A DNA stretch of 64,000 nucleotides from Kofleriaceae bacterium (GTDB lineage: Bacteria; Myxococcota_A; Polyangia; Haliangiales; Haliangiaceae). Where the stretch lies: NCBI GenBank assembly GCA_046597055.1, contig JBKJLC010000037.1, positions 1-64,000 of the forward strand, in the 5' to 3' direction. Shown in pieces: positions 7,366 through 60,666 of the stretch. A model generated the notes under the pieces. It saw only the letters and a list, made by a program, of their open reading frames with translations. It was not told where the DNA came from and did not search any database. Every line of letters starts with the position of its first letter. Position 1 is the first letter of the stretch. Made by a program: the position numbers and the translations under genes.

Positions 7366-7380
7366 GCAAGCACCACGCCG
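7366..7380 (-). promoter_or_regulatory. sigma54-type promoter
   Basis: CGGCGT-GGTGC-TTGC on the minus strand upstream of the beta-barrel gene. Confidence 0.6.
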
Positions 7381-7484
7381 GGCAACGTGACGTTGGCGGT
7401 CACACGTGCGAGAAACGAAGTCGCCGGTTTCTCCTCGTGCGTACGGTGGACGCCCGAAAATAATGCGCGGACACCGAGTCAGGT

Positions 7485-7499
7485 GCGCAAGGGCTGCGC
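7485..7499. promoter_or_regulatory. GCGCA-N5-TGCGC palindrome, putative activator (NmpR-like) site
   Basis: GCGCA AGGGC TGCGC about 105 bp upstream of the sigma54 motif at 7380. Confidence 0.6.
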
Positions 7500-7657
7500 G
7501 CTGCAGCAATCGAGGTCGACTGGACGCGGCGCTTGACCAGCGTGGTCACGAGCGCCTTGTCGGCCACCCGGGGCCCCCGCCGATCTCGCCAGCTGCGTCT
7601 TCGACGAGCGGGATCTGGGCTTGATCCACTCCCGTGGACGGTTTGGTTACGTCGCCA

Positions 7658-7930
7658 TCACTTCGCCGACCGACGCGTGCGACGGCGCGTCGGTGGGGAT
7701 CCGGGTGCTCCGGCAGGCTTCCTCAAGGCCTCCGGCTTCGATTTGGGGAGTGCGCTGGTGCGTGCGACGTGGGCGGCGGCCCACTCGTCGACGCACCGGC
7801 GGATCGCCTCGGAGAGGCCCGTGGCTTCTCGACGCGACCGCTGTTCAAGAACGCGAACCTGTCGCGCCGACAGGCGGACGGCGACAAGCGTGCCCTTCGG
7901 GTCGTTGGTTGGCCGTCCACCTACCTGCAC
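7658..7930 (-). CDS. Small ribbon-helix-helix (CopG-like) DNA-binding protein
   Basis: GRP..PKGTLVAVRLS..LEQRSRREATGLSEAIRRCVDEW; TATAAC 7 nt upstream of the GTG. Confidence 0.5.
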   Translation of the reverse strand: MQVGGRPTNDPKGTLVAVRLSARQVRVLEQRSRREATGLSEAIRRCVDEWAAAHVARTSALPKSKPEALRKPAGAPGSPPTRRRTRRSAK

Positions 7931-7979
7931 AGGTTTTGTTATACACAAGGTCGACGCCGTCGGCAAGGCACTGCGGCGT

Positions 7980-8278
7980 CCGGAGCGCAGACCTTCCGCA
8001 TGACCAAGCAGGGTGCGCTCGCGTACTTTGTCGGCGGCGATTCGAGCTACCCCGACGATATCGGCTTCGCGCTTAAAGGGTGGGTCAAGTGCGAGCCAGT
8101 GATCGCGGGCGTGGTCGCGCACGGTGACATCGCCATCGCGATGGGCAACGTACGCTTCGAGGACGCGAAGGGGAACGTGGCGACGGTCGACAAGACCTCC
8201 GGCTACCTTCGTCGCGCCGCCGGCGACCTGCGAATCGTCCTTCATCACTCGTCACTGCCTTATGCGCCGGCCGAATGA
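7980..8278 (+). pseudogene. 5'-truncated COG4337 / iota-type carbonic anhydrase-like gene
   Basis: GALAYFVGGD..YPDDIGFALKGW..AMGNVRF..VDKTSGY..LRIVLHHSSLPY; N-terminal part missing. Confidence 0.6.
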
Positions 8279-8520
8279 TCGCCTCACGGCGACATCCTCG
8301 GCATGATCACCACCTTCGGTCGGTGTTGATCTGCTGCGGAGTACCTGGTGCGGAGGCAAGGAGGGTCATCTCCAGGGGATGGCGCCGATCTTGCGACGCC
8401 AGGGTGGCGTCCGGCTTGCGCGACGCCGCTCTCGGCTTGCGCCCGTGTTTCGCAGAGCGTCCACCGAGCGCACGCCCCAATGTGCATCGTGTGAACCGTC
8501 GCGACCGCAAGCGCGGACGG

Positions 8521-9276
8521 CTACTGCGGGATGTCCTCGACGTGCGGGATCTGGTTCAGCTTGACGATCTTGGTCTTGCGCGTGGTCCTGATGTTGATCA
8601 TCTCGACGAACACGCTGAAGCCCATCGCGCCGTAGATGTAGCCCTTCGGGATGTGCGCGCCGGATCCCTCGGCGACCAGGACGAGACCGATCATCAGCAA
8701 GAACGACAACGCGAGCACCTTGACCGATGGGTGGCGCTCGACAAACGTGCTGATAGTCTTGCCGAGCAGCAACATTACGATCAGCGCGATCACGTTCGCG
8801 GCGATCATCACGCTGATGTAGTCGGTCATCCCGACCGCAGTGATCACGCTGTCGATCGAGAACACCATGTCGAGCACCATGATCTGGAGAATCACGGCGC
8901 CGAACGTGGTCGTCGCCTTCGCCAGCGCGTCCTCGTCCGCCGCCTCGAGCTTGTGGTGAATCTCTTTGGTCGCCTTGTAGAGCAGGAACAGGCCGCCCGC
9001 GAGCAGGATCAACGCCTTGCCAGAGAAGCCTTTGCCGGCGAACTCGAACAGTGGCTGGTCGAGCTTCACGATCCACGAGATCGTGGCGAGCAAGCCGAGA
9101 CGCGAGATGAACGCGCCTGCGAGCCCGAGCTTGCGTGCGCGCTCGCGCTGAGATGCGGGTAACCGACCTGACAGGATCGCGATGAAGATGAGGTTGTCGA
9201 CGCCGAGGACGATCTCGAGTGCGGTGAGCGTCGCGAGGCTCAGCCACACCTCGGGAGATGACAGGAGATCGACCAT
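8521..9276 (-). CDS. TerC family integral membrane protein
   Basis: LEIVLGVDN and DMVFSIDSVITAVGM motifs. Confidence 0.92.
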   Translation of the reverse strand: MVDLLSSPEVWLSLATLTALEIVLGVDNLIFIAILSGRLPASQRERARKLGLAGAFISRLGLLATISWIVKLDQPLFEFAGKGFSGKALILLAGGLFLLYKATKEIHHKLEAADEDALAKATTTFGAVILQIMVLDMVFSIDSVITAVGMTDYISVMIAANVIALIVMLLLGKTISTFVERHPSVKVLALSFLLMIGLVLVAEGSGAHIPKGYIYGAMGFSVFVEMINIRTTRKTKIVKLNQIPHVEDIPQ

Positions 9277-9680
9277 GGCCGGACTATGACTTGCTCGGCC
9301 CGCAATAGCGACGGCAGGAGCCCGGCGGATGCTCGTCGCGCTCGTGCTCAGGGCTCGCGCGACCGCGCGGGTTCAGATTCAGCATGGACGATGAGCGCGG
9401 AGGCCGCGCATCAGGTCGTCACTCGGGACCTCCGGCGCGCAACCACAGGCCCGGCCGCGACTCCGCTCGCCATCAGTCAGCGGGATGCGCGAGCCGAGGC
9501 GCGACGGACCTGCACCAGCCGGCAATCGCAGTAGTTGGGCATCGCGCGGACGCACTCGTTCAGGCATGGGCGAACAAGCCCCGCAAGCCGGAGCCCAGCC
9601 GGAGCCCAGCCGGATCGTCGTGTGGTGGCGACGCTGGTAGGCGGTAGGCGGGCCCCGAACCAGCATGAAGGCGCGGTTTC

Positions 9681-9760
9681 ATCGACCAGTCGGACGTTAC
9701 GTCCCAATACGTTGGAGAATCGTACGTATGTCGACTCCGCTTGAATGGCTGAACTATCAG
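9681..9760 (+). pseudogene. Duplicated promoter plus first about 10 codons of the NhaR-like regulator
   Basis: cgtcccaatacgttggagaatcgtacgtATGtcgactccgcttgaatggctgaactatca matches 11781-11840; MSTPLEWLNY versus MSTPMEWLNY. Confidence 0.8.
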
Positions 9761-9763
9761 GAG

Positions 9764-10180
9764 CTACGAGTAGAGCATCAGTAGGACGAAGCTGAAGGCG
9801 AGCAGGATCGACGCCACCGTGCCCGCGGCGAAGACAAGTCCGACGATGCTAGCGAGGCGGGTGATCCCCTGCATCAGGTGGGCGATGTCGTTGCCGTCCG
9901 TGTGGATCAGCGCCGAGAATGCCGTGGTCGCTCGGATGAGCAGGAAGCCGGTCACCACACCGATGAACGAGAGTAGAAACCAGACCGCGTAGTCGACGTA
10001 GGTCACCATCGCTGACCCGCTGGCGCCGAGCGACAGGCCGAAGTAGTCGACGAAGTGGTAGAGGAGCAGGATGATGCTGGCGATGACGACGACGAATCCC
10101 GAGCGCGACAGGTTGCGGACCAACCCCCGGAAGGTCGCATTCTCTGCCGCGGTGAACTCGTAACCGGCGCCGTTGGTCAT
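9764..10180 (-). CDS. Hypothetical membrane protein, about 3 TM
   Basis: GAGGAGG RBS; YEFT..EN..F and LIHTDGNDIAHLM..L patterns; hydrophobic helices. Confidence 0.75.
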   Translation of the reverse strand: MTNGAGYEFTAAENATFRGLVRNLSRSGFVVVIASIILLLYHFVDYFGLSLGASGSAMVTYVDYAVWFLLSFIGVVTGFLLIRATTAFSALIHTDGNDIAHLMQGITRLASIVGLVFAAGTVASILLAFSFVLLMLYS

Positions 10181-10257
10181 GTCAGTCCTCCTCAAAATGC
10201 CAACGTAGGCGATCCCCGGGGTTAAATCAAAGCCCGTGCGAGACGGCGAGACGCCGG

Positions 10258-11358
10258 CTACACTCCGCGATGGCCCGTGGGCCTCGTTGCCTTATCGTCA
10301 TCTCGCTGGTGCTCCTGGTGATCGTCATCGCCGATCTCGGCAAGATCGGCGCCGGCGTTCTCGAGCGCGACCGCGGAGAGTTGTACCGCATGTGCGCCGA
10401 CGACCGGATGCGCTGACTCGAGGCGGGCTGCCGACCGTTCGCGTCGGCCGGAGACGATCCACGACCAGGTGATCGACACGGCGAGGATGGTGCCGATCAC
10501 GCCGAGCGAGAGCCCGGTCGGGACCTTGTAGACCTCGACGATCAGCATCTTGGACCCGACGAACACCAGGATCGCCGCGAGCCCGACCTTGAGGTAGGCG
10601 AACCGCTGGTACGCGCCGGCCAGGAGGAAGAAGAGTGCGCGTAGGCCGAGGATTGCGAAGACATTGGACGTAAAGACGATGAACGGGTCGCGGGTGATCC
10701 CGAAGATCGCGGGGATCGAATCGAGCGCGAAGACCACGTCGGTGACCTCGACGAGCAGCAGCGTGAGAAACAGCGGCGTGGCCACTCGGCGCCCGTTCTC
10801 GCGCGTGAAGAAGCGTTGTCCATCGAGGCGCGTGGTCGACGGGATCAAACGGCGGAACACGCGCATCGTTCGACTCTCTCCCGGGCTGTCAGCGTGGCTG
10901 CGCGAGAGATACATCTTGATCCCGGTGACCACCAGCAGGCCGCCGAAGACGTAGATCATCCAGTGGAAGGCCTCGAGCAGCGCGACCCCACCAAGGATCA
11001 TCGCGGCCCGCAGGACGAGCGCGGTGAGGATGCCCCAGAACAGGATGCGATGCTGATAGATCGCTGGGATCTTGAACGCCGCGAAGATGATGACGAAGAC
11101 GAAGATGTTGTCGACGGAGAGTGACTTCTCGATCAGATAGCCGGTCAAGAACTCGGTCGCGGCCTGGCCGCCGAACTGGTGCCAGATCCACAGGTTGAAC
11201 AGGAGCGAGGTCGAGATCCATACGATCGACCAGGTTAGGGCCTCCTTGAACCGAACCTCGTGCGCCTTGCGGTTGAAGATGCCGAGGTCGACGGCGAGGA
11301 AGCCGAGGACCAAGCCGACGAACCCGAACCAGAGCAGCGGTGTACCGATGGTCTCCAT
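10258..11358 (-). CDS. alx: TerC/Alx family membrane protein
   Basis: EFLTGYLIEKSLSVDN, YQHRILFWG, EVTDVVFALDSIPAIF, SNVFAILGLR. Confidence 0.9.
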   Translation of the reverse strand: METIGTPLLWFGFVGLVLGFLAVDLGIFNRKAHEVRFKEALTWSIVWISTSLLFNLWIWHQFGGQAATEFLTGYLIEKSLSVDNIFVFVIIFAAFKIPAIYQHRILFWGILTALVLRAAMILGGVALLEAFHWMIYVFGGLLVVTGIKMYLSRSHADSPGESRTMRVFRRLIPSTTRLDGQRFFTRENGRRVATPLFLTLLLVEVTDVVFALDSIPAIFGITRDPFIVFTSNVFAILGLRALFFLLAGAYQRFAYLKVGLAAILVFVGSKMLIVEVYKVPTGLSLGVIGTILAVSITWSWIVSGRRERSAARLESAHPVVGAHAVQLSAVALENAGADLAEIGDDDHQEHQRDDDKATRPTGHRGV

Positions 11359-11364
11359 GGCTCG

Positions 11365-21460: not shown

Positions 21461-21475
21461 GCGCAAGACCTGCGC
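21461..21475. promoter_or_regulatory. GCGCA-N5-TGCGC palindrome
   Basis: GCGCA AGACC TGCGC, intergenic; no clear sigma54 motif left downstream. Confidence 0.55.
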
Positions 21476-47153: not shown

Positions 47154-47154
47154 G

Positions 47155-49368: not shown

Positions 49369-49384
49369 CGTGTGCTGGTACTCA

Positions 49385-49528
49385 GCAACCGGTGTGCCCG
49401 CAGGACCGGCGCGGTCCGCGCAAGGTTTTCGTGGGCCCCGGTCGTGGCGTGCTTCGGGCGCAGGTCCTGCGCGGCAGGTTCCGGCTGCGCGGCGTCGTGC
49501 GGGCCGACCCGGGTGGCGCATCGCGTGC
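49385..49528. promoter_or_regulatory. Divergent sigma54-type promoters sharing a central palindrome
   Basis: Minus GGGCAC-ACCGG-TTGC (49399-49385, ccoNO); GCGCA-GGTCC-TGCGC (49458-49472); plus TGGCGC-ATCGC-GTGC (49514-49528). Confidence 0.7.
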
Positions 49529-49543
49529 AGTCGAGTCCCGGTC

Positions 49544-50048: not shown

Positions 50049-50083
50049 CGGCCACGAACCAGGCCGCAAGGGTGCAGCAGCGG

Positions 50084-50545
50084 TCAGCGCGGCTGGCTGC
50101 GCCGGAGCGAGGCCAGCGGGTACACTGGCTCGCCGCGGCACACCTCGGCCCGGCCGCAGCGTGGATTGACGAAGACCAGGTCGGCGTACACCGAGGCGAA
50201 CGCGGCGGCCAGGCGTCGCTCGAGCGCGCCGCGCGCGGGCGGGGCCGGACCGGCCAGGTCGGCAGCCGCGACCGCAAACATGGCTGGCAGCCCGTGCGGG
50301 TCGAGGTCCTTCCACTCGCACGACTCGCCGGCCGGCCCCGGCGCGGTGGGCCACAGGGGCTCCTGGGGCGCGCAGTCGGGGTGGGTGCCGCACGCCTCGG
50401 TCTTGCGGACGCGGGCGCGGAACGCGAGCTCCACCAGGTCCTGGCAGGCGGCGCGATCGAGCGTGGGCGCGACCGCGCAGGCGCGGGCCGTGATCGCCTC
50501 GACCACGCCGGCGAACGTCTGGTCTCCGAGGAAGAGCTGATACAC
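50084..50545 (-). CDS. Hypothetical Cys-containing protein
   Basis: GAGG RBS; follows the small TM peptide gene. Confidence 0.55.
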   Translation of the reverse strand: MYQLFLGDQTFAGVVEAITARACAVAPTLDRAACQDLVELAFRARVRKTEACGTHPDCAPQEPLWPTAPGPAGESCEWKDLDPHGLPAMFAVAAADLAGPAPPARGALERRLAAAFASVYADLVFVNPRCGRAEVCRGEPVYPLASLRRSQPR

Positions 50546-50556
50546 GGGAGACCTCG

Positions 50557-50673
50557 TCAGGTGATCATGAAGACGACCATCACCGCGACCAGCCCGCAGA
50601 CCAGGGCGGTCCAGATCAGGATCTCGAGGACGAGGTGCATGCCGCTCGGCGGGCTCGTGGGCGCGATAGCCAT
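50557..50673 (-). CDS. 38-aa single-TM peptide
   Basis: MAIAPTSPPSGMHLVLEILIWTALVCGLVAVMVVFMIT, directly after a sigma54 motif. Confidence 0.55.
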   Translation of the reverse strand: MAIAPTSPPSGMHLVLEILIWTALVCGLVAVMVVFMIT

Positions 50674-50687
50674 GGTGAGCCTGCCGA

Positions 50688-50777
50688 GCACGGCGCGTGC
50701 CGGGGACCGACGCGACCGAACGCGAAAAGCCTGCGCCGCGCGGCGCCCGACCTCACGGGTGCGCGCACGGGTTGCGC
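50688..50777 (-). promoter_or_regulatory. sigma54-type promoter plus palindrome pair
   Basis: CGGCAC-GCGCC-GTGC (50702-50688); GCGAA-AAGCC-TGCGC (50722); GCGCA-CGGGT-TGCGC (50763). Confidence 0.65.
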
Positions 50778-50789
50778 AGCCGTCGTGGC

Positions 50790-51566
50790 TCAGGCGGCCA
50801 CGAGCCGCGCGAGGTCGAGGCCGCTGGCCACGCCGGTGATCTCGGGCCCGACGAACGCGACCACCCGCCAGACCGCGAGCGCCGCGGCCTGCGCGGCGGC
50901 GTCGTGCAGGAAGGTCCGCGCCGGCAGACACAGGATCGCGCGCTCGCAGGCATCTTCGACCGCGGTCGTCGGCGGCAGGTCGCGGGCGACCAGGGCATCG
51001 AGCGGCGTGAACACGCCGATCGGCCACTGGTCCCGCATCACGACCACGTCGGTCGAGCCCTGGGCGAGCGCGGCCGCGGCGGTCGCGACCGTCGCCGAGG
51101 CGCGCACCGTGGTCACCGGCCCGCGGGTCACCTCCGACAGCGGGAGCTGGACCCGGGCGTCGCGCACCGCGGCGGTCAGGTCGAGGGTGGTGATGACGCC
51201 GACCGCGCGGCCACCCGCGACGACGAACAGCCGGTGGACCCGGGCGGCGACCATCTGCCGGGCCGCGTCGCGCAGCGAGGTCTCCGGCGTGCACACCAGC
51301 GGCGTGTGGGTGACCAGCGCGGCGACCCGCAGCTCGGGCACCACCAGCACGTGCTGGCCGCGGTGGCGACCGGGCTCGATCCGACCGGCGTGCAGCAGGT
51401 CGGTCCGCGAGATCACGCCGGCGAAGGTGCCGTCGTCATCGGCGACGGGCAGCGCCGAGATGCGCTGGTCGTCGAGGAGCCGGGCGACCGCGGACAGCAG
51501 GGTGTCGCTGGTGACCACGACCAGGTCGGTGGACATGTACGACGAGACGGGCTGGCGGAAAGGCAT
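50790..51566 (-). CDS. CBS-domain protein, paralogue of 40262-41050
   Basis: ISALPV..GVISRTDLL, WPIGVFT..ARDLP, SGLDLAR; upstream TGGCCG-AGAAC-CTGC at 51594-51580. Confidence 0.88.
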   Translation of the reverse strand: MPFRQPVSSYMSTDLVVVTSDTLLSAVARLLDDQRISALPVADDDGTFAGVISRTDLLHAGRIEPGRHRGQHVLVVPELRVAALVTHTPLVCTPETSLRDAARQMVAARVHRLFVVAGGRAVGVITTLDLTAAVRDARVQLPLSEVTRGPVTTVRASATVATAAAALAQGSTDVVVMRDQWPIGVFTPLDALVARDLPPTTAVEDACERAILCLPARTFLHDAAAQAAALAVWRVVAFVGPEITGVASGLDLARLVAA

Positions 51567-51612
51567 GGCGGGTCCGACTGCAGGTTCTCGGCCAGCGCCG
51601 CCGGCGCGCAGG

Positions 51613-52392
51613 TCACAGGCGCGCTGCGAGGACGAGCCAGCCGCCGGTGAGCAGGGAGGCGATCACGAGCCCCCACCCGATCTGGCGCAGGCGCCGGGGC
51701 GAGGCCGGCACCACCGCCAGGGCGACCGCGATCGCGATCAGCGGCGCGCCGGCCAGGACCTGGCGGTCGACCCAGGTCGCGAGCACGCCGGCGGTGGCGA
51801 CCACCGCGGCGAGCCCGATGGGCCCGGCCGGGCGTCGGGGCCGCTTGCCGCGCGCGATCACGTCGCGCACCGCGACGGTGACCGCGGCGAAGCCGAGCGA
51901 CCACGTCGCCCAGGCCCAGGCGGCAGTGGCCGGGTCGAGGCCACCCGCGACCGCGACCGGCACCGCGGCACCCGCCAGCGCACAGGCCGCGATCACCTCG
52001 CCGGGCAGGGTCTTCTCCTGGCCGCGCCAGACCAGGACCGCCGCCAGCGACGCGGGCACCAGCGCCGCGCCTGCCGCGAGCGCCACCGTCGCGTCGCCGA
52101 CCACGAGGCCGAGCCCCCCCGCGACCGCGGCCACGCCGGTCAGCTGGGCGAGCCGGCGCCGGGCGCGATCGCCGTGGTCGCGCTGCACGCGCGCGCCGCG
52201 ATGCCCGGCCAGCACCAGCGCCGGCTCGTGCGCGAGGAACGTCGTCACCGCGGCGATCGCCAGCGCCACCGCAGCCAGGCCGGGGCACCCCGACGCCAGC
52301 CCGACCACCAGCGGCACGCCGAGCTGGCCGTAGGCGCCGTGCTCGCGCGGCGCGAGCGAGCGGGCGCGGGGCGGCGCTGCGGTGGTCATCAT
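51613..52392 (-). CDS. YwiC-like membrane protein
   Basis: LAPREHGAYGQL, FLAHEP, LRQIGW. Confidence 0.8.
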   Translation of the reverse strand: MMTTAAPPRARSLAPREHGAYGQLGVPLVVGLASGCPGLAAVALAIAAVTTFLAHEPALVLAGHRGARVQRDHGDRARRRLAQLTGVAAVAGGLGLVVGDATVALAAGAALVPASLAAVLVWRGQEKTLPGEVIAACALAGAAVPVAVAGGLDPATAAWAWATWSLGFAAVTVAVRDVIARGKRPRRPAGPIGLAAVVATAGVLATWVDRQVLAGAPLIAIAVALAVVPASPRRLRQIGWGLVIASLLTGGWLVLAARL

Positions 52393-53051
52393 GGGGTCGC
52401 GAGCGCGGTCACGGCGTCGGCCCGGCTCGCCTGCCGCCGACCGATGACCAGGTGCAGCACGGTCAGGGCGAACACACCCATCACGAAGACGCCCATCAGG
52501 TACGTGCCGAGCTGCGGCCAGCTCATGGTCTGGAAGTTGGCGATCTGCTTGGTGCCCACGATCGCCGGCGTGAACGGCTCGATCTTGATCGGCGCGGTCG
52601 GGTCGAGGGTGTGCCCGTACACGTGGAGCTTGTAGATGAAGCGCCCGAACGCGAAGCCCGAGACGTAGCCCGTGAGCACGAGCAGGTCGATCAGCGTCCG
52701 GACGTTGCCGATCGCCGCGCACCGGAGGGCCAGGATGGCGAGCAGCCCGAGCGCGAACGGGATCCAGTCGAGGTCCTTCAGCTCGGCGCGGTCGATCGTC
52801 TTCATGCCGATGTAGTGGTTGAGATTGTTGATCTCCTTGATGTCCTTACCATCGTGGCCACCGACGACCTTGTGACCGTAGATGTCCATCGAGAGGCCCT
52901 TGGGATACTGGGGCGCCTTCATCGAGATCCGCCAGAGCGGCTGGGTGAACACCAGGACCAGCGGAATCACCAGCGCCGCGAGCACGAGCCGCGCGATCGG
53001 AAACAGCGGGCGGTCGAGGAAGACGTAGAACCGGGCGACTGCATCCTTCAT
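52389..53051 (-). CDS. nosB: Clade II nos-associated membrane protein, NosB-like
   Basis: PLWRISMKAPQYPKGL, EINNLNHYIGM, YGHTLDPTAPI. Confidence 0.75.
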   Translation of the reverse strand: MKDAVARFYVFLDRPLFPIARLVLAALVIPLVLVFTQPLWRISMKAPQYPKGLSMDIYGHKVVGGHDGKDIKEINNLNHYIGMKTIDRAELKDLDWIPFALGLLAILALRCAAIGNVRTLIDLLVLTGYVSGFAFGRFIYKLHVYGHTLDPTAPIKIEPFTPAIVGTKQIANFQTMSWPQLGTYLMGVFVMGVFALTVLHLVIGRRQASRADAVTALATP

Positions 53052-53064
53052 CGGGAAGCTCCTG

Positions 53065-53904
53065 TCAGACGAGATCGCCGCGCCGAAAGGCGAGGTAGGC
53101 GCCGGTCCAGGTGCCGACTCCCACCGCGACCGGCCAGGCGATGCCCAGCGCCAGCAGCGCGGTCGAGCCGAAGCGGTGGGCGAGATAGAACCCGACCGGG
53201 CCGAGCGTGGCGAGGTCGGTCTCGAGCCCGCTGAGCAGCGCCATGCGAGCGTCCTGGACCGGGTTGAGGGCGGCCAGCGTGAACACCGCGTGGGCGTCGA
53301 GCCGCCAGCGCAGCATCACGCCGATGAGCCCGAAGTCGAGCAGCGCGACGCCGAGGGCCCAGCTCAGGATCACCCAGGTGGTGGCCCGGGCCGGGTTGCG
53401 GACCAGCGTCGAGATCAGGATCCCGACGCCGGAGAACGCCGCCAGGAGCGCGGTGGCGATCACGAGCGAGCGCACCACGAACGGCCACGGCACCGCCTGG
53501 CCCAGCGCGACCTGTCCGTACAGGCCGAGGCCGACCATCAGCACCACCAGCGGCACCACCAGCACCGCGTAGCGGGTCAGCGAGACCCCGAGGAACCACG
53601 CGCTCCGGCGCAGCGGCTGGCTGAACAGCAACTCGAGCGTGCCGTCGTCGCGCGCGCGCCCGACCACCGGGCTGAACATGGTGAGCGCGAGCAGCGGCAA
53701 CAAGAGCAGCAGCGCGTGGCACATCGAGAGGAGCACGCGGCCGATGCCGGTGAACCCGAGCACGGTCGACTCGCGCATGCCGACCAGGACGAAGATCACG
53801 GCGAGCAGGAAGTACGCGCCGGCGCAGAACAGCAGCCAGCGCGAGCGGAGCACCTCGGCGAGGTCGAGACGGGCGGCGACCAGGACCTGACGGACGAAGC
53901 TCAC
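53065..53904 (-). CDS. nosY: ABC permease NosY
   Basis: LRSRW, GTLELLFSQP, LNP..ARMALL; nos context. Confidence 0.85.
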   Translation of the reverse strand: MSFVRQVLVAARLDLAEVLRSRWLLFCAGAYFLLAVIFVLVGMRESTVLGFTGIGRVLLSMCHALLLLLPLLALTMFSPVVGRARDDGTLELLFSQPLRRSAWFLGVSLTRYAVLVVPLVVLMVGLGLYGQVALGQAVPWPFVVRSLVIATALLAAFSGVGILISTLVRNPARATTWVILSWALGVALLDFGLIGVMLRWRLDAHAVFTLAALNPVQDARMALLSGLETDLATLGPVGFYLAHRFGSTALLALGIAWPVAVGVGTWTGAYLAFRRGDLV

Positions 53905-54374
53905 GGGTGGCCTCCGGACGGTGAGGGGGCGACCGGTCCCGCCAGCACCCGGAGCCGGGCGGTGGCCAGGTCGATCGCGCCGGGCGTGGCCCGCGGCACC
54001 GCGGCCAGGCCGAAGCCCATCGGCGTGGTCGCGCCGCTGACGAAGCCGACCTCCGTGCTGGACAGCCAGCCGGCGCTGGTGCTGTCGTGGAACCAGATCC
54101 GGTGCACGTCGGGCGCGCGGTCGTCGAGGTACTGCAGCAAGCAGCCGGGGTCGTCGAAGAACGCGGCCTCGCCGGTGCGGTCGACCAGCTGGGCGGCGTG
54201 GGCGGGCTCGCCGACCAGCATGCGGCAGTGCGCGCAGGGCTGATGGTTCCAGGCCACCGGCATCGGCCCGTCGGGCACGCGGGAGCCCCGCGCGACAACG
54301 ACGATCACGGTGAGGACCCCGGCGACCAGCGCCGCCAGGCTCGCCCACCGGAGCCAGCGATGGTCACGAGGCAC
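53901..54374 (-). CDS. nosL: Copper chaperone NosL
   Basis: CAHCRM, FFDDPGCL, TPMGFG. Confidence 0.85.
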   Translation of the reverse strand: MPRDHRWLRWASLAALVAGVLTVIVVVARGSRVPDGPMPVAWNHQPCAHCRMLVGEPAHAAQLVDRTGEAAFFDDPGCLLQYLDDRAPDVHRIWFHDSTSAGWLSSTEVGFVSGATTPMGFGLAAVPRATPGAIDLATARLRVLAGPVAPSPSGGHP

Positions 54375-55239
54375 CGGGCGCCTCCAGCTCGAGGTGGTCG
54401 GTGTCGCGCACGACGAGATCGTCGACGGCGCCCCCGAGCCGGGTCAGCACGGCCGGCACGAGCCGCAGCTTGTCGGCGTGCGAGACCGCCTGGGTCCACC
54501 AGCCGCCGGCCCCGGCCGCGAAGCCCTGGCTGGCCAGCCACGCCACGTCGGCCCCCCGGTAGCGCACCTCCACCACCGCCGCCTGGTGGGCCGCCAGGTA
54601 GGCGGTCGCGGGACCGTCATGCGTGATCCGGCCGTCGGCGAGGGCGACCACGTGATCGACCAGCGCGCGGAGCTCGTCGAGCCGGTGCGAGCACAGGATG
54701 AGGGTGGCGTGGGGGGTGGCGCGCGCGACGTGGGCGAGCAGCCGGGCGCGAGCCTGGGCGTCGAGGCTGGCGGTCGGCTCGTCGAGGACCAGCAGGTCGG
54801 CCGGGCTGGCCAGCGCCAGCGCGAGGAGCAGCTTCTGCCGCATCCCGCCCGACAGCGACCGGACCGGCCGGTCGCGGACCCGGTCGAGGTCGAGCCCCAG
54901 CATGGTGGCCAGGTCGACCACCGTGGTCCGCGCCACGCCGCGCAGGCCGGTGATCGCGCGCACCACCTCGTCGACCGGCGCCGCCAGCTGCGGCGCGATC
55001 TGCGGGACGTACGCGAGCCGCGCCGCCACCGCCATCCGGTCGGTGAGCGGACGGCCGTCGATCAGGATCTCCCCCTGGTGGTGGAGCAGGCCCATGATCG
55101 TTCGGGTCAGCGTGGTCTTGCCGGAGCCGTTGGGGCCGAGCAGCGCGACCCGCGCGCCGCTCGCGATCGTGAGATCGATGCTGGCGAGGGCGGTGCTGGT
55201 CCCGAACCGCTTCGACACGTTGCGCAGCTCGATCCGCAT
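54364..55239 (-). CDS. nosF: ABC ATPase NosF
   Basis: GPNGSGKTT, LSGGMRQK, LDEPT. Confidence 0.88.
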   Translation of the reverse strand: MRIELRNVSKRFGTSTALASIDLTIASGARVALLGPNGSGKTTLTRTIMGLLHHQGEILIDGRPLTDRMAVAARLAYVPQIAPQLAAPVDEVVRAITGLRGVARTTVVDLATMLGLDLDRVRDRPVRSLSGGMRQKLLLALALASPADLLVLDEPTASLDAQARARLLAHVARATPHATLILCSHRLDELRALVDHVVALADGRITHDGPATAYLAAHQAAVVEVRYRGADVAWLASQGFAAGAGGWWTQAVSHADKLRLVPAVLTRLGGAVDDLVVRDTDHLELEAPGAS

Positions 55240-56558
55240 CAGCGAGGTCCTCCGGCGCCAGCGACCGGCGCCATGCGGGGGCGGGGATCTTCGAGCACCG
55301 TCCGGGGCTGGAACAGCGGGTCGAGGTGGGCGGCGGCGTCGGCCAGCGCCAGCGCCGGGGTGCCCGTGAAGAAGCCGAGCGCGGGCTGATGGGCGACCAG
55401 CTCGCCCGAGAACGAGCGCAGCTGGTAGGGCAGGTCGCCGGTCCCGTTGCCGTCGAGGTCGTAGCCGGCGTAGTCGTCGAACCAGTTGCCGTCCCATCCG
55501 ACCTGCCGTGCGTCGTTGCCGCCGTCGACCCGGACCTGGATGTCGTTGCCACCGAAGTCGTTGCCGCGGACGGTGACGCCGTGGGTCGAGGCGTGGAAGG
55601 CGAGGGCGGTGCCGCACAGCCGCAGCTGGTTGCCGGTGATCTCGACCGTCTCGTCGCGCCGCTGCGGGGTGGCGTCGAGGTAGATCCCGACGTGGTCGCG
55701 GACCAGCACGTTGTCGGCGATCCGCACCGTCCCCGAATCCTTGAGGCCGATCGCGATGCCGGCGGCGCCGGCCGCGTTCGCGATCAGGTTCCCGGTCAGG
55801 GCGACCTCCTTCGAGTACATGACGAAGATCCCGACGGTGACGTCGACGTAGCGGTTGCCCGAGGCGACGGTGTGGTGGCTGTACATGAAGTGGGTGCCGT
55901 AGCGCGCCCGCAGGATGCGGTTGTTGCGGACGGTGGCGCCGCGCGAGTACCAGATGACGACGTCGCGGCCGTCCTCGACCTGGTTGTCCTCGACCACCGC
56001 GTCGTCGGTCTCCCACAGCCGGACCGGATCGCCGCGCTGGCCGATCGCGTCGTCGGTCGACCCGTACACGTGATTGCCTGCGACCCGCACGCCGCGGGCG
56101 CGTTCGACCACGATGCCGTAGCCGGCGCCGACCACGGTGACGCCCGCGATGACGACGTCGGCGGCGGTCGCGTGCACCGCGGCCTCGTGCTCGTTGGCGC
56201 CGCGGTTCGCGCCATCGATGGTGACGCCGCGCAGCTGGGCGCCGGCGCCGCGGAGGTGGACGGTCGCGCCGCCGCCGGTCGCGACCACCACCGCCTGGGG
56301 TGGGCCCCACACCGTCACGCCGGCGTCGACCACGATCGGGCCCGGGTAGCGGCCCGGATCGAGGCAGAGCGCCTGGCCCGGCGTCGCCGCCGCCACCACC
56401 GCGGCCAGCGCGTCGCTGGCGAGCACCCGCCGGCATGGCGCCGGCCGCGGCCCATCAGCCGCGTGGCCCGGCGGCCGACCCGCGACCGGCGGCGTCGCGC
56501 AGGCCGCGATCGCCGACGCGGCCAGCGTGATCAGCGCGGCGAGGGCCGGGGCCATCAT
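55239..56558 (-). CDS. nosD: Periplasmic maturation protein NosD
   Basis: RYGTHFMYS, GIFVMYS, GNWFDDYAGYDLDGNGTGDLPY, DPRP. Confidence 0.92.
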   Translation of the reverse strand: MMAPALAALITLAASAIAACATPPVAGRPPGHAADGPRPAPCRRVLASDALAAVVAAATPGQALCLDPGRYPGPIVVDAGVTVWGPPQAVVVATGGGATVHLRGAGAQLRGVTIDGANRGANEHEAAVHATAADVVIAGVTVVGAGYGIVVERARGVRVAGNHVYGSTDDAIGQRGDPVRLWETDDAVVEDNQVEDGRDVVIWYSRGATVRNNRILRARYGTHFMYSHHTVASGNRYVDVTVGIFVMYSKEVALTGNLIANAAGAAGIAIGLKDSGTVRIADNVLVRDHVGIYLDATPQRRDETVEITGNQLRLCGTALAFHASTHGVTVRGNDFGGNDIQVRVDGGNDARQVGWDGNWFDDYAGYDLDGNGTGDLPYQLRSFSGELVAHQPALGFFTGTPALALADAAAHLDPLFQPRTVLEDPRPRMAPVAGAGGPR

Positions 56559-56571
56559 CGCCGCCGCCCGG

Positions 56572-58530
56572 TCACTTGGGCTCCACCAGGAAGTACCCCG
56601 CCATCTCGAGGTGCAGCGCCGAGCAGAACTCGGTGCAGTACATCGGGAACACGCCCGCGCGGTCGGCGACGAACGTGACGTCGGAGTGCTCGCCGGGCTC
56701 GAGCGACAGGTTGATGTTGTACGCGCTGAGCGCGAAGCCGTGGGTGGCGTCGTAGGCTTGCTCGAGGCTGGTGATGTGGACGTGGACGGTGTCGCCGACC
56801 TTCACGCGGACCACGTCGGGCGTGAAGTGGCTGCGGATCGCGGTCATGTAGACGTGGACCTGGTCACCCTGACGCTCGACCCGCTCCTTGCCGCCCGCGA
56901 CCGCGTGCGGCGAGATCTCGCCGGTGATCGGATCCTCGCCAGGCGGGTAGATCTCGATCGGCTTCAGCTTGTCGGCCTTGATCATCTGGGCGTAGTGCGG
57001 CTCGCCGAGCGGCAGCGGCAGGTCGTAGAGCACGGTCATCTTGGGCGTGGTCAGATCGACCAGCTGGAAGTTCTGCGGCAACAGCGGGCCGACCTTGTTG
57101 AACCGGTCGAGCGCCCACTTGTTCATCGCGATCAGGTACTTGCCGTCGGGCGACACGGTGTCGCCCTCGGCCGCGACCAGGTGGCCGATGTTGTAGTGAG
57201 TCGAGACCTTGTCGACGACCTTCAGGTCCGCGAGCGACCACTTGGCGACCACGGTCTCGAGGAACAGCGACGTGTACGCGAAGCCCTGGCCGTCGAACTG
57301 GGTGTGGAGCGGGCCGAGCCCGAGCTCGACCTGACCTCGGATCGCATCCTTGAAGGCGAGGATCGGTACCCCATAGCGATCCTTGCTCTCGAACTGCTTG
57401 TTCTCGATGAGCGTCTTGATCTTCTCGAAGCTGTAGACCGTGCCGTGGGTGTCGAGTTTGCCGCCGACCACGATGTCCTTGCCATCGGGGGTCACGTCGA
57501 CGCCGTGCGGGCTCTTGGGCTCGGGCACCAAGGTCAACACGCCCTCGGCGGCGGCGGTCGCCAGCCGGATCGTGCGCATCCCGGCGATCGTCTCGAACTT
57601 GCCGGCGGCGATCAGCGCCTCGGCCTTCTTCCAGTTGACGACGTGCATGTAGTCCATGTCGTTCTGCGACATGCCCGACTCCATCGGCGGGTTGCCCTCG
57701 GCGTTGCCGCCCCACGCCAGCTCGGTGTTGATCGAGTTGAAGAAGGCCCAGCCGTTGGAACCCAGCTTGCCGGCGTCGGCGAGGTCCTGCACGTAGGGCG
57801 GGAACTCGATCGCGAACGAGGCGGTCGGGTCGAGGCGACCCTTGCTGCGGTCGAACTTCCAGAACAGCGCGGCGCCGCGATACTTGCTCTCGTAGTCGGT
57901 CTTGGGGTCGGCGTAGACCCCGCCGAGCGGCGCGGCGTACTGGGTCGTCTCGATCACGTACTCGGTGTCGGGCGTGACGAAGGCGGCGCCGTGGTCGGAG
58001 CCGATCAGCTCGCTGGTGACGATCTGCTTGGTCGCGAAGTCCCCGAGGTCGATCACCGCGAGGCGGGCGTTGGCCTTGTCCCCGATGAAGAGGAACTGGC
58101 CGTCGTAGTCGCCGCCGGTCTCCGACAGCGCCGGGTGGTGGGTGTCGGCCCACGTGAGATCCTTGCCGCCGCGCTTGCCGCCGGCGAGGACCGCCTTGGT
58201 CTGATCGTCGAAGCCATAGCCCTGCCACGGCTCGGGCGTGAACACGGCGATGTACTTGAGGATGCGCATGCTGGGCACCCCGATCACGATCACCTGGCCG
58301 GACTGGCCACCCGAGGCGAACGCGAAGTACTCGTCGTGCTTGCCGGTGGGGGTGTAGGTCTTGAGCGCGGCCTGGACGTCGGCCTCGTTGAGGCCGCGCG
58401 CCTTCATCAGCTCGCCGAGCGAGCTGGCGGCGCCGCCGGTGGGCCCACCGGGCGAGGAGGTCTTGCCGCTGCCGCAGGCGAGCCCGGCGACGAGGACGCC
58501 GACACAGGCCAGATTCTGGGAGATGTGCAT
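56572..58530 (-). CDS. nosZ: Clade II (Sec-type) nitrous oxide reductase
   Basis: FASGGQSG, DTHHP, SDHG, KSPHG, GPLHTQ, NIGHL, EPHY; CuA THGF and CTEFCSALHLEM; lipobox LAC, no Tat motif. Confidence 0.97.
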   Translation of the reverse strand: MHISQNLACVGVLVAGLACGSGKTSSPGGPTGGAASSLGELMKARGLNEADVQAALKTYTPTGKHDEYFAFASGGQSGQVIVIGVPSMRILKYIAVFTPEPWQGYGFDDQTKAVLAGGKRGGKDLTWADTHHPALSETGGDYDGQFLFIGDKANARLAVIDLGDFATKQIVTSELIGSDHGAAFVTPDTEYVIETTQYAAPLGGVYADPKTDYESKYRGAALFWKFDRSKGRLDPTASFAIEFPPYVQDLADAGKLGSNGWAFFNSINTELAWGGNAEGNPPMESGMSQNDMDYMHVVNWKKAEALIAAGKFETIAGMRTIRLATAAAEGVLTLVPEPKSPHGVDVTPDGKDIVVGGKLDTHGTVYSFEKIKTLIENKQFESKDRYGVPILAFKDAIRGQVELGLGPLHTQFDGQGFAYTSLFLETVVAKWSLADLKVVDKVSTHYNIGHLVAAEGDTVSPDGKYLIAMNKWALDRFNKVGPLLPQNFQLVDLTTPKMTVLYDLPLPLGEPHYAQMIKADKLKPIEIYPPGEDPITGEISPHAVAGGKERVERQGDQVHVYMTAIRSHFTPDVVRVKVGDTVHVHITSLEQAYDATHGFALSAYNINLSLEPGEHSDVTFVADRAGVFPMYCTEFCSALHLEMAGYFLVEPK

Positions 58531-58546
58531 GATGGCTTGCTCCGGT

Positions 58547-58966
58547 TCAGTGCTTGAAGCTGCGCACGACCGCGCGGAGCTCCGCGACGATCGCTGGATC
58601 GGTCAGGTCGGGATTGCCGGGCATCGCCGGGCTCTTGCCGACCGCGACGCCACCGAACTTGATGATCTTCTCGACGTAGGCGTCGTCGATCGACTGCTGC
58701 CAGGCCGCGTCCCCGAAGTTGCGGGGCTTGGGGGTGAGCCCGGCCGAGGCGGGGCCATCGCCCATGCCCTGGGGACCATGACAGGGCGTGCAGCGGGTCG
58801 CGAAGATGTGGCGGGCGGTGGCGGCGGCCGGGCTGCTGGCGGCCGCGGGCTGACTGGGAGCTCCAGCGACCACCGGCTCGGCTTGATCGCCGTCGGCCGG
58901 CGTGGGCTTGCTGCACGCGGCGGCGACGAGGAGGGTGGCGGCAGAGACGAGCACGACGATTCGCAT
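58547..58966 (-). CDS. Monoheme cytochrome c lipoprotein
   Basis: Lipobox AAAC, CTPCH, GDGP..PKPRNF, SPAMP. Confidence 0.9.
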   Translation of the reverse strand: MRIVVLVSAATLLVAAACSKPTPADGDQAEPVVAGAPSQPAAASSPAAATARHIFATRCTPCHGPQGMGDGPASAGLTPKPRNFGDAAWQQSIDDAYVEKIIKFGGVAVGKSPAMPGNPDLTDPAIVAELRAVVRSFKH

Positions 58967-58997
58967 CGATGCACCTCGGGGTTTGTGGGTTCTGGCA

Positions 58998-59085
58998 GCA
59001 AGCCACGTGCCCGGTGTGCGGCCGCGATGCGCGCAATCGGTGCGAAGTCGGGCGCGTCCGCCGCAAAGACCCGCAGGACCTTCGC
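58998..59085 (-). promoter_or_regulatory. sigma54-type promoter of the nos operon plus degenerate palindromes
   Basis: GGGCAC-GTGGC-TTGC (59012-58998); GCGCA-ATCGG-TGCGA (59031); CCGCA-GGACC-TTCGC (59071). Confidence 0.65.
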
Positions 59086-59094
59086 GGTCGCGGC

Positions 59095-60492
59095 TCAGAT
59101 CGTGGGCGACCCGGTGCCGGTGCGGGCGTAGCGATCGAACACGCTGCACACGTTGCGGATCAGGTGATGGCCGAGCGGCGTCGCGGTGATGGTGCCGCCG
59201 GCGCGGTCGACCACCGCGAGGTCGGCGAGCTCGCGCTCGAGCACGGCGAGCTCGCGGGCGAAGGTGGTGGCGAAGTCGAGCAGGTGTCGATCCTGGACGT
59301 CCGCGAACGCGAGCCGGCCGTCGCACATGAGGCGCATGATCACCGCGCGCCGGAGCTCGTCGTCGCGGTCGAGCTGGACGCCGCGGGTGACCGGCAGCCG
59401 GCCGGCCCGGACCGCATCCGACCACGCATCGACGTCGACCAGGTTCTGCCAGTAGGCGTGGCCGGCGTCGGAGATCGCGCTGGCCCCGCACCCGATCAGG
59501 CGCGCGGCGCGCGCGATCACGTAGCCCTGGAAGTTCCGTCCCAGGGTGCCGCTCGCGCTGGCCGCGATCAGCGGATCGCCGGGGCGCGCGAAGTGGTCGA
59601 GGCCGATGCGGACGTAGCCGGCGTCGGCGAGGCGATCCATCACGGTCCGCAGCAGCTCGACCCGCTCGCGGATCGTCGGGACCGGCGCCGCGCGCTCGAC
59701 CAGGCGCTGGTGCGGCCGCAGGTGCGGCATGTGCGCGTAGCCGAACACGGCGATGCGGTCGGGCGCGAGCTCGACCACGCGGTCGAGGGTGAGGCCGAGG
59801 GTCTCGGGGCTCTGTCCGGGCAGGCCGTAGACCAGGTCGACGTTGACGCTGTGAAAGCCGGCCGTGCGTGCGCGCTCGATGACGGCGCGGGTCTGCGCCA
59901 GCGTCTGGGTCCGGTGGATCACCTCCTGGACCGTGGGATCGAAGTCCTGGACGCCGACCGAGACGCGGGTGAAGCCGAGCGCAGCCAGCGCGTCGATCTG
60001 TTCGGCGGTGGTGTCGCGGGGATCGAGCTCGATGCCGAGGTGTGCGTCAGGCGCCACCGAGAAGTGGCCGCGGATCGCCACCATCAAGCGCGTGAGGTCG
60101 TCGATGTCGAGGAAGTTGGGCGAGCCGCCGCCCAGCGCGAGCTCGACCAGTGGGGGCGCGCCGCCGATCGCGGCCACCACCAGGCCGAGCTCCCGGATCA
60201 GGAGATCGATGTAGCCCGTGCCCTGGCTGCGATCGCGGGTCGCGCGCACGTTGCACCCGCAGTACCAGCACAGCTGCGAGCAGAACGGGATGTGCACGTA
60301 GAGCGAGAGGGGCTCGCCGGCGCCGATCGCCGCGAGCTCGCGCGCGGCGTCGACGGGACCGAACTGACGCGTGAACTCGGTGGCCGGCGGGTAGCTGGTG
60401 TAGCGAGGACCGGCCTGGGCGCGCGCCACCAGCGCGTCGCTGGACTGCTCGATCCGGGGCGGAAACGTCGGGAGGAGGCGGATGGCGGCCAT
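59095..60492 (-). CDS. hemN: Oxygen-independent coproporphyrinogen III oxidase
   Basis: GPRYTSYP, SLYVHIPFCSQLCWYCGC, GVQDF, IGLDHFA, RNFQGY. Confidence 0.95.
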   Translation of the reverse strand: MAAIRLLPTFPPRIEQSSDALVARAQAGPRYTSYPPATEFTRQFGPVDAARELAAIGAGEPLSLYVHIPFCSQLCWYCGCNVRATRDRSQGTGYIDLLIRELGLVVAAIGGAPPLVELALGGGSPNFLDIDDLTRLMVAIRGHFSVAPDAHLGIELDPRDTTAEQIDALAALGFTRVSVGVQDFDPTVQEVIHRTQTLAQTRAVIERARTAGFHSVNVDLVYGLPGQSPETLGLTLDRVVELAPDRIAVFGYAHMPHLRPHQRLVERAAPVPTIRERVELLRTVMDRLADAGYVRIGLDHFARPGDPLIAASASGTLGRNFQGYVIARAARLIGCGASAISDAGHAYWQNLVDVDAWSDAVRAGRLPVTRGVQLDRDDELRRAVIMRLMCDGRLAFADVQDRHLLDFATTFARELAVLERELADLAVVDRAGGTITATPLGHHLIRNVCSVFDRYARTGTGSPTI

Positions 60493-60506
60493 GCGCCACT
60501 CGGCGA

Positions 60507-60666
60507 GCACGGCGTATGCCATGGGAGCTTCCGGCCGAGCGGCGACCTTCGACGAGAACCAGGCACGATGAAAGTGCGCGGGCGGCGCGGCCCTGCGCAG
60601 GGTTTGCGCGATCGCCGGATGGCGCGTGAGCCAGAGCAGGCGTCCCCGCCGTGGCATGAGTCTTGG
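60507..60666. promoter_or_regulatory. Divergent hemN / mtrC sigma54-type promoters with a central palindrome
   Basis: Minus TGGCAT-ACGCC-GTGC (60521-60507); GCGCA-GGGTT-TGCGC (60595-60609); plus TGGCAT-GAGTC-TTGG (60652-60666, variant -12). Confidence 0.65.

Follow-up and report, generated by a model that had tools for sequence, protein, structure and literature searches.

Genes and palindromes at the locus

We analyzed the first 64 000 nucleotides (hereafter the window) of a 146-kb contig (JBKJLC010000037.1, C101 in the coordinates below) from the Kofleriaceae genome assembly GCA_046597055.1. Perfect copies of the palindrome GCGCA-N5-TGCGC stand there beside genes for a cbb3 oxidase, nitrous oxide (N2O) reduction, HemN and multihaem cytochromes, and we interpret them as probable sites of a regulator resembling NmpR of Myxococcus xanthus. 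The assembly comprises 8.4 Mb in 303 contigs, with an estimated completeness of 94% and contamination of 7.6%. Because DNA of ∼70% G+C is full of spurious open frames, genes were called with a codon-usage caller trained on 1166 long open reading frames (ORFs) of the genome, superseding calls on GC3 alone that had missed many genes, and were annotated with Pfam and NCBIfam. The caller trimmed some N-termini and mis-split at least one region (C101:107–109 kb), and the gene starts used here rest on coding potential, Pfam/NCBIfam coverage, and the start of relatives' alignments.

The leftmost gene of interest (6449–7330, minus strand), the likely target of the first palindrome, encodes a 293-aa protein. 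A first-pass annotation, made from the sequence alone, had called this protein a beta-barrel, but it has no Pfam or NCBIfam match and only its C-terminus (...GLSLSF) is barrel-like; for the other targets named there, Pfam and NCBIfam agree. A second likely target is the operon at 21861–26747 (plus strand), whose overlapping or abutting genes encode, in order, a 52-aa ORF, a nucleotidyl transferase, a 71-aa ORF, a triple universal stress protein (USP), an M50 protease with CBS, and a D-lactate dehydrogenase-type enzyme (Pfam/NCBIfam). Two CBS-pair proteins (Pfam; 39636–40217 and 40262–41050, together 39636–41050, plus strand) are followed by the cbb3 oxidase operon (41225–49368, minus strand; Pfam/NCBIfam), made up of fused ccoNO, a small ORF, ccoP, ccoG, FixH, DsbD_2, and a copper P-type ATPase. 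On the same strand, 50084–50673 encodes a small hydrophobic protein, of ∼38 aa when read from the ATG at 50673, together with a protein of 153 aa that has no known family.

The nos cluster (50790–58966, minus strand; Pfam/NCBIfam) encodes a cytochrome c, Sec-type NosZ, NosD, an ABC ATPase and permease, a YwiC-like protein, a CBS protein, and unnamed ORFs. Its NosZ is assigned to clade II (Sec-dependent) because it scores above the cut-off of the Sec-type model TIGR04246 (848.6 bits vs 625) and below that of the Tat-type model TIGR04244 (386.3 bits vs 625). The hemN gene (TIGR00538, 446.5 bits vs a cut-off of 325) lies at 59095–60492 (minus strand); its start was moved to the ATG at 60492, since the ATG at 60522 falls inside a promoter element and the corresponding element of relatives lies at −25 to −29. 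Divergent from it, from 60684 to the window end at 64000 (plus strand), are the gene for an OmcA/MtrC-family decaheme lipoprotein (TIGR03507, 380.6 bits vs a cut-off of 209.3; lipoprotein-type N-terminus MRACLLPILLLTITAC) and then multihaem cytochrome genes, the cluster continuing past the window to ∼C101:69310. Judged by its family names, the decaheme cluster would serve extracellular electron transfer.

NmpR, an NtrC-like protein, binds GCGCA-N5-TGCGC in electrophoretic mobility shift assays (EMSA), and the GCA-N5-TGC core is invariant in the bound sites (PMC11841059). The first-pass annotation had linked this repeat to NmpR, with hemN and cbb3 as targets; the motif agrees to the letter, and both targets belong to the published regulon (PMC11841059). 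It also placed the perfect copies exactly: the window holds six, at 7485, 21461, 39511, 49458, 50763, and 60595, against 0.71 expected (SD 0.86), and none of 100 dinucleotide-preserving shuffles reached six. All six lie between genes in the codon-usage calls; at 39511, 49458, 50763, and 60595 the longer open frame of the neighboring gene overruns the site, as is usual at 70% G+C. Sites with one mismatch are not enriched in the window (21 found, 17.1 expected, 21 of 100 shuffles reaching 21), so we gave weight only to perfect sites and to degenerate sites beside them. The one-mismatch class as a whole was accordingly dropped as evidence and kept only next to promoters or perfect sites.

The near-perfect partners listed in the first-pass annotation are real, with one mismatch at 21711, 21740, 50722, and 59031 and two at 39540 and 59071. 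In M. xanthus, NmpR sites are paired at gaps of 5–50 nt, with a preferred S1/S2 gap of 14–15 nt, i.e. 29–30 bp start to start (PMC11841059). A spacing of 29 bp (a 14-nt gap) recurs in two pairs here, both noticed at first pass: the one-mismatch sites 21711–21725 and 21740–21754 (together 21711–21754), and the perfect site 39511–39525 with the two-mismatch site 39540–39554 (39511–39554). The perfect site 50763–50777 and the one-mismatch site 50722–50736 (50722–50777) are 41 bp apart, and the one-mismatch site 59031–59045 and the two-mismatch site 59071–59085 (59031–59085) are 40 bp apart, giving gaps of 25–26 nt. The GCA-N5-TGC core is intact in the partners 21711, 21740, and 59031 and broken in 39540, 50722, and 59071. 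No partner with at most one mismatch accompanies the intergenic site at 7485–7499 (GCGCAAGGGCTGCGC), the site at 49458–49472, which lies upstream of ccoNO and is kept in relatives, or the site at 60595–60609, which is common to the divergent hemN and decaheme promoters.

The sixth perfect palindrome, 21461–21475, has no promoter of its own and may be a distal site for the promoter at 21807 described below. An open frame covering the pair 21711/21740 (21558–22019) has a poor coding score (22.7) and no Pfam match. This frame, which encodes 153 aa and begins after site 21461, loses its coding character after ∼21690. Its N-terminal stretch (21558–21690) looks like the N-terminus of a DUF302 protein, and this part of the window may be a gene remnant.

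Sigma54 promoter elements beside the palindromes

Expression of NmpR targets depends on a sigma54 site, as lacZ fusions show (PMC11841059). The first-pass annotation had paired every perfect palindrome except 21461 with a GG-N10-GC motif facing the adjacent gene. Bare GG-N10-GC is far too frequent at 70% G+C to be informative and was rejected as evidence; a weighted 16-mer (TGGCACG-N4-TTGCW, maximum score 23, both GG and GC required) was used instead. On this stricter measure the pairing stands at five promoters with scores of 20–22, and 21461 is again without a promoter; the proposed motif on the decaheme side did not hold in its canonical form.

Strong elements (scores 20–21) lie 58–73 bp from four of the perfect sites and face the gene: GGGCACGCGCCTTGCG (39595–39610, plus strand, score 21) for site 39511 and the CBS genes, GGGCACACCGGTTGCT (49384–49399, minus strand, score 21) for 49458 and ccoNO, CGGCACGCGCCGTGCT (50687–50702, minus strand, score 21) for 50763 and the small ORF, and TGGCATACGCCGTGCT (60506–60521, minus strand, score 20) for 60595 and hemN. 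At 59031 the element GGGCACGTGGCTTGCT (58997–59012, minus strand), which scores 22 and precedes the cytochrome c–nosZ genes, is only 18 bp away. The five strong elements of the window (20–22) thus lie 18–73 bp from a palindrome, each facing the next gene. Weaker sigma54-like elements are CGGCGTGGTGCTTGCT (7365–7380, minus strand, score 19 of 23), 104 bp from palindrome 7485, and CGGCCCGGTTCGTGCT (21807–21822, plus strand, score 19 by hand count), which accompanies the pair 21711/21740. On the decaheme side of site 60595, the sigma54-like element TGGCATGAGTCTTGGA (60652–60667, plus strand) has GG in place of GC at −12. With an NmpR-site promoter defined, after PMC11841059, as a correctly oriented sigma54 element < 500 bp from the site and < 400 bp from the gene start, such promoters are found at 39511, 49458, 50763, 59031, and 60595, weakly at 7485 and 21740 (score 19), and not at 21461.

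If the 16-mer is taken to begin at −26, the site centers fall at −52/−53, −62 to −64, −74/−76, −84/−86, −92 to −95, −103/−107, −114/−115, and −138. A Rayleigh test on 20 such distances between site and promoter indicates helical phasing, with a peak at 10.25 bp (R = 0.63, p = 3e-4; p = 3e-3 at 10.5 bp), but placement of the sites on the same DNA face relative to the promoters is taken as suggestive only, because 25 periods were scanned and S1/S2 pairs are not independent.

At hemN (60490–60521) and at the small hydrophobic ORF (50671–50702), the first usable ATG lies ∼3–5 nt past the predicted transcription start, and on these predicted starts both mRNAs would be leaderless or nearly so. FNR boxes (TTGAT-N4-ATCAA, at most two mismatches) are absent from every promoter with an NmpR-type site. 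The window holds 17 such matches against 3.5 expected, all outside NmpR-type promoters and 15 of them inside genes, and FNR-type control was rejected; the excess is probably a codon or composition effect. The two intergenic FNR-like matches are at 13642 and 30223. Within 49300–61000, the part scanned for other signals, there is no sigma70 consensus promoter, terminator, or terminator-like site.

Genome-wide distribution of sites and promoters

The rpoN gene is present in a single copy (Sigma54_DBD match at C253:4153–4629, E = 3e-65), and the genome has 87 matches to the Sigma54_activat domain. Elements of the weighted 16-mer number 770 intergenic vs 2154 coding at scores ≥ 19, 371 vs 301 at ≥ 20, and 179 vs 44 at ≥ 21. 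Since 11.3% of the genome is intergenic, this bias indicates that high scorers are mostly real promoters, and their abundance fits the 87 activator matches and the single rpoN.

The genome-wide number of perfect palindromes, 104, is unremarkable given their composition, yet 30 lie between genes (binomial p = 1e-6 given the intergenic share). Pooled over 29 composition-matched control palindromes, 222 of 2511 copies (8.8%) are intergenic. Intergenic counts for spacers of 2 to 9 are 11, 10, 9, 30, 17, 11, 13, and 14, so the excess is specific to N5, where 30 sites compare with 9–17 at other spacers. In line with the regulatory role proposed at first pass, the motif is ∼3-fold denser between genes than in coding DNA, and only at spacer 5. 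Outward-facing sigma54 elements with scores ≥ 20 lie no more than 150 bp from 10 of the 30 intergenic sites, 2 of the 74 coding sites, and 4.9% of random intergenic positions (n = 20 000; p = 9e-7 for 10 of 30). C101 contributes ten of the 30 intergenic perfect sites and eight of the ten that are sigma54-paired.

A candidate regulator and its kinases beyond the window

The first-pass annotation had postulated an NmpR-like activator encoded elsewhere. A candidate lies 26 kb past the window (C101:88837–90213, minus strand), with REC, Sigma54_activat, and HTH_8 domains. Directly downstream and in the same operon is a kinase with protoglobin, HisKA, and HATPase domains (C101:87674–88831), whose globin domain matches the AfGcHK globin structure 5ohe (E = 4e-36). 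The operon's own promoter carries the same sites as the window: a perfect palindrome at 90307, a one-mismatch partner 31 bp away (90338), and a sigma54 element. The regulator is single-copy, its next-best paralogue in the genome being 48% identical, and no NCBIfam model claims it; identity to it declines from 76% within the genus to 54–59% in other families. An NnrS gene (C101:90653–91906) diverges from the regulator operon, and the intergenic region 90213–90653 with its sites is common to both.

About 20 kb beyond the regulator stand genes for a PAS kinase, a single-receiver protein, and a receiver–HisKA–HATPase hybrid. The hybrid (C101:109663–110754), with its N-terminal receiver, resembles NmpS by architecture alone, and the 147-aa protein at C101:109223–109666, with one receiver domain, is NmpT-like. 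The PAS–HisKA–HATPase kinase just upstream of these two genes (C101:108126–109226; L003:10126–11226, plus strand) may feed the same phosphorelay. Past the hybrid kinase, one perfect site precedes a hemerythrin gene and another a USP gene. Between the regulator and these kinases, paired sites at 101775/101805 with a sigma54 element scoring 22 precede an RND efflux operon (OEP/HlyD/AcrB; C101:100504–101805), and paired sites at 103861/103891 with a sigma54 element precede an acyltransferase/epimerase operon (C101:102895–103905). The 14–15-nt class of S1/S2 gap recurs past the window, at 90307/90338, 101775/101805, and 103861/103891.

The region C101:7485–111463 (∼105 kb) has the appearance of a regulon island: of the 30 intergenic perfect sites in the genome, ten are found there, as are the regulator and both kinases. 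A second protoglobin, fused to a STAS domain, is encoded on another contig (C88:1–5564, locus L177) in a cluster with a GAF–kinase–receiver hybrid, a STAS protein, and an anti-sigma-type kinase. That cluster has a perfect palindrome at C88:4776 and a sigma54 element scoring 20 that faces a 139-aa ORF without a name; this protoglobin may be a second globin-based sensor of the same regulon.

Conservation in relatives

Searched with the regulator, species-representative genomes yielded 80 loci at 70–88% identity, mostly from Kofleriaceae, Haliangiales, Myxococcales, and delta-/Deltaproteobacteria metagenome-assembled genomes, with a few from Myxococcota, Proteobacteria, and Acidobacteriota. Because relatives share ancestry, the counts that follow are read as footprints and not as independent trials. 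Across the full 1.31 Mb of these loci, with the real sites counted in, the background density is 0.047 sites per 150 bp.

For the regulator's own promoter, 75 loci were counted after five had been dropped (four with < 260 bp upstream and one partial match). A sigma54 element is present in 67 of them, mostly at −49 to −67 from the start, and 62 of the 75 combine it with a site of at most one mismatch, such sites typically lying at ∼−96 and −125. When 68 promoters are anchored on the sigma54 element, only CGCA-N5-TGC and the −24/−12 columns are conserved; the palindrome arms hold their places in the promoter, whereas N5 spacer and flanking sequence vary.

Family-level searches for nos, ccoNO, and the decaheme gene, in which loci of the unpublished genome G081 were left out, gave the following counts. 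Upstream of ccoNO, a sigma54 element scoring ≥ 20 is present in 23 of 25 relatives and a site in 21 of 25 (the count excludes two further loci with short upstream DNA and one at a contig edge). At nos, 26 of 28 relatives have the element (≥ 20) at the same place upstream of the cytochrome c gene, and within 150 bp of it a site with one mismatch or none is present in 18 of 28. A site accompanies the decaheme gene in 19 of 28 relatives (interval −250 to +40; background ∼0.09 per locus). Among loci L118–L129, the decaheme promoter TGGCAC[GA]-N4-CTTGGA is kept in the seven closest relatives, with TTGT in place of TTGG in three others; judged by its sequence, it is a conserved non-canonical sigma54 −12 element. 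In the five relatives in which hemN diverges from the decaheme gene, all five have TGGTAC[GA]-N4-[CT]GTGCT at −25 to −29. Orthologous promoters thus conserve the motif, as a regulon of the kind first proposed would lead one to expect.

Outside the family we examined 29 nosZ loci. One family of the same class has the site in 6 of 12, at −666 to −736, an equivalent place, and across nine other Myxococcota families the site occurs at 1 of 17 loci. The nos link is therefore lineage-specific and "regulon extension", the phrase of the first-pass annotation for N2O reduction and extracellular electron transfer, is a fair description that fits the phylogeny. In two genomes of a distant family, the 55%-identical regulator still adjoins a protoglobin kinase and has a one-mismatch site upstream. 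To look for the M. xanthus nmp locus, eight genomes from two families were searched for the globin kinase and for Protoglobin domains, and four loci were read. At two of them (L183 and L186) the order globin kinase, receiver, hybrid kinase is like that of the published nmpUTS, with no sigma54 activator within the stretch read; L183 lacks the site, and L186 has only three one-mismatch sites, none tied to the nmpUTS-like genes.

Interpretation and alternatives

We interpret the palindromes as enhancer sites of the NmpR-like, NtrC-family regulator at C101:88837–90213, which would activate adjacent sigma54 promoters as oxygen falls, and assign this interpretation a probability of roughly 0.78. Its direct basis is the sites themselves, their intergenic excess and spacer specificity, their pairing with sigma54 elements, conservation, the presence of rpoN, and the position of the regulator beside a globin kinase.

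By analogy with M. xanthus, the oxygen-bound, NmpU-like globin kinase would be active and hold the NmpS-like hybrid kinase off (PMC11841059), and a fall in oxygen would let the hybrid kinase phosphorylate the regulator. The regulator would then bind the dyads as dimers, oligomerize, and remodel sigma54 holoenzyme at adjacent promoters, including its own. Its targets would comprise its own operon, the cbb3 oxidase, hemN, the CBS and USP proteins, and hemerythrin, and in this lineage also clade II nos, the OmcA/MtrC decaheme cluster, the lactate-dehydrogenase operon, and the RND efflux operon. The low-oxygen oxidase, the N2O reductase, and the outer-membrane cytochrome cluster are thus likely to be switched on together at oxygen shortage. 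A broader proposal, to which we give even odds, is that in soil Kofleriaceae and one sister family this oxygen-sensing globin-kinase/NmpR/sigma54 cascade acts as master switch over both clade II N2O reduction and the OmcA/MtrC conduit, organized with its sensor genes in a regulon island of ∼105 kb and wired by promoter capture. Capture of new promoters is suggested by the absence of the sites from the nos clusters of other Myxococcota families.

Several observations weigh against the enhancer-site interpretation. A strong sigma54 partner is missing at 20 of the 30 intergenic perfect sites, and the 74 coding sites look like chance. Within the window, no promoter accompanies site 21461, the score of 19 at 7365 and 21807 belongs to a class whose members fall mostly in coding DNA across the genome, and the decaheme-side element TGGCATG-N4-TTGGA has the non-canonical GG at −12. 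The helical phasing carries the limits given above, and the conservation counts overstate support, the relatives not being independent. The regulator is called NmpR-like, and likely is so, from its domain set, sites, and targets, having been set beside M. xanthus NmpR by description; in genomes of one family (f36), the best match to it is at paralogue level (E ∼1e-122). The nmp kit is also laid out differently, with regulator and globin kinase in one operon and the hybrid kinase 20 kb away, and its NmpT-like protein contains a single receiver domain instead of two. The public sequencing runs that matched were metagenome contigs from soil and sediment plus a single metatranscriptome, in which 5% of the sampled words were present; because contigs cannot show starts, they give no transcription starts.

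The alternative that survives best keeps this architecture and changes the signal: NO, CO, or redox state in place of oxygen limitation, in which case the regulon would serve a nitrosative or denitrification response. We consider this unlikely, although haem globins bind NO and CO besides O2, the NnrS gene shares the regulator operon's intergenic region, and the nos operon is among the targets. Oxygen sensing by M. xanthus NmpU was itself inferred from haem dependence and the Anaeromyxobacter homolog (PMC11841059). Against another signal, the cbb3 oxidase, hemN, hemerythrin, USP, and CBS genes are classic low-oxygen genes, the homologous AfGcHK kinase is active with oxygen bound, and no nitrite- or NO-reductase family match was found among the C101 proteins scanned; hypoxia induction of M. 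xanthus mxan_4236 is NmpR-dependent (PMC11841059).

It is less probable still that another factor binds the palindromes and also controls the NmpR-like gene, whether one of the roughly 80 other sigma54 activators or a regulator outside the class of enhancer-binding proteins. The 87 Sigma54_activat matches leave ample candidates, the regulator was likened to NmpR by description and not by sequence, and the 20 intergenic sites without a sigma54 partner would be accommodated. The site, however, agrees in every letter with the one that EMSA proved for NmpR, and both systems share a core regulon (PMC11841059); the regulator's own promoter keeps its sites in most relatives and a one-mismatch site in the two genomes of the distant family; and one contig holds the regulator, both kinases, and a third of the intergenic sites. 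Chance GC-rich sequence or structural elements such as terminator stems or repeats, with no regulatory role, are already disfavored and very improbable: the genome-wide total is ordinary for the composition and the one-mismatch class is not enriched in the window, but the excess between genes is confined to one spacer length, sigma54 elements accompany the sites, the arms keep fixed promoter positions while the spacers vary, and 49300–61000 contains no terminator-like sites.

Other features of the contig

C101 carries three genes for TerC-family membrane proteins, two of them in the window beside a LysR regulator (8521–11358) and the third at C101:93110–94216. Other window genes encode a trypsin with four PAN domains, an ice-binding-like protein, and a baeRF (bacterial eRF1-like) protein. 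Four very large genes (1119, 950, 1420, and 585 aa), the first with DUF6603 and the others without a family, form a row at C101:74146–86381, which separates the cytochrome cluster from the nmp operon.

Comparison with known systems

Control of N2O consumption in organisms with clade II nosZ is poorly understood, and clade II nos clusters are not known to carry the NosR-type regulators of clade I. In the full-text literature, which leaves subscription journals uncovered, we found no paper linking clade II nos clusters to an NmpR-type regulator, only an unrelated Accumulibacter study on clade II nosZ and sigma-54, and no paper on Kofleriaceae and nosZ; among the best-ranked full-text papers on nosZ or nitrous oxide, multiheme proteins, and Anaeromyxobacter, none contains the word NmpR. 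If the broader master-switch proposal is true, these nominally aerobic predators would become hypoxia-induced N2O sinks and metal reducers. The prediction is species-specific and concrete, with a named regulator gene, sites, and promoters conserved across dozens of uncultured soil genomes, and it would offer a clear case of regulon growth by promoter capture, with most of the regulon and its sensors on one stretch of DNA.

The regulatory logic is that of FixLJ–FixK and FNR/Anr in Proteobacteria, in which low oxygen calls for a high-affinity oxidase, oxygen-independent haem synthesis, and N2O reduction. Unlike those systems, the one proposed here would use a sigma54 enhancer-binding protein and a 15-bp GC-rich dyad, with no FNR boxes at the promoters. 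DosR/DevR of Mycobacterium likewise commands a hypoxia regulon rich in USP and CBS proteins through a haem-based kinase sensor. DosR itself is a NarL-type regulator acting at sigma70-type promoters through an unrelated DNA motif. The USP parallel to DosR has also been drawn in PMC11841059. AfGcHK of Anaeromyxobacter sp. Fw109-5 (5ohe) has the same protoglobin, HisKA, and HATPase layout as the kinase at C101:87674–88831; unlike AfGcHK, the kinase gene here is in an operon with a sigma54 activator. According to PMC11841059, the Nmp regulon is unknown outside M. xanthus, Anaeromyxobacter included, and species-specific members are to be expected.

The closest comparison is NmpRSTU of M. xanthus (PMC11841059, PMC6211767), which has the same site, paired with a 14–15-nt gap, mostly intergenic, and combined with sigma54 promoters. 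Its published targets are nmpUTS, the nmpR operon with its leading CBS gene, a USP gene, cbb3 together with a P-type ATPase, hemN together with a hemerythrin, and pilR (PMC11841059). Common to both systems are nmp autoregulation, the CBS, USP, cbb3 with copper ATPase, hemN, and hemerythrin targets, and the set of an NtrC-like regulator, a protoglobin kinase, and a receiver–kinase hybrid. The pilR link was not met here, no search having been aimed at pilR. The Kofleriaceae host belongs to another class of Myxococcota; its regulator and globin kinase form one operon, with the hybrid kinase 20 kb off beside a PAS kinase; its NmpT-like protein has one receiver domain where NmpT has two (PMC11841059); and most of its regulon lies within ∼105 kb of one contig.

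Tools for testing the prediction already exist in M. xanthus, namely a constitutively active NmpR variant, EMSA, and lacZ fusions. The motif, the type of regulator, and the core regulon are already published for that species. The additions predicted here for Kofleriaceae are clade II nos, the OmcA/MtrC decaheme cluster, the NTP-transferase/USP/M50/lactate-dehydrogenase operon, the RND efflux operon, and the acyltransferase/epimerase operon; this predicted membership, conserved across Kofleriaceae and gathered with the sensor genes, is what is new relative to the M. xanthus system.

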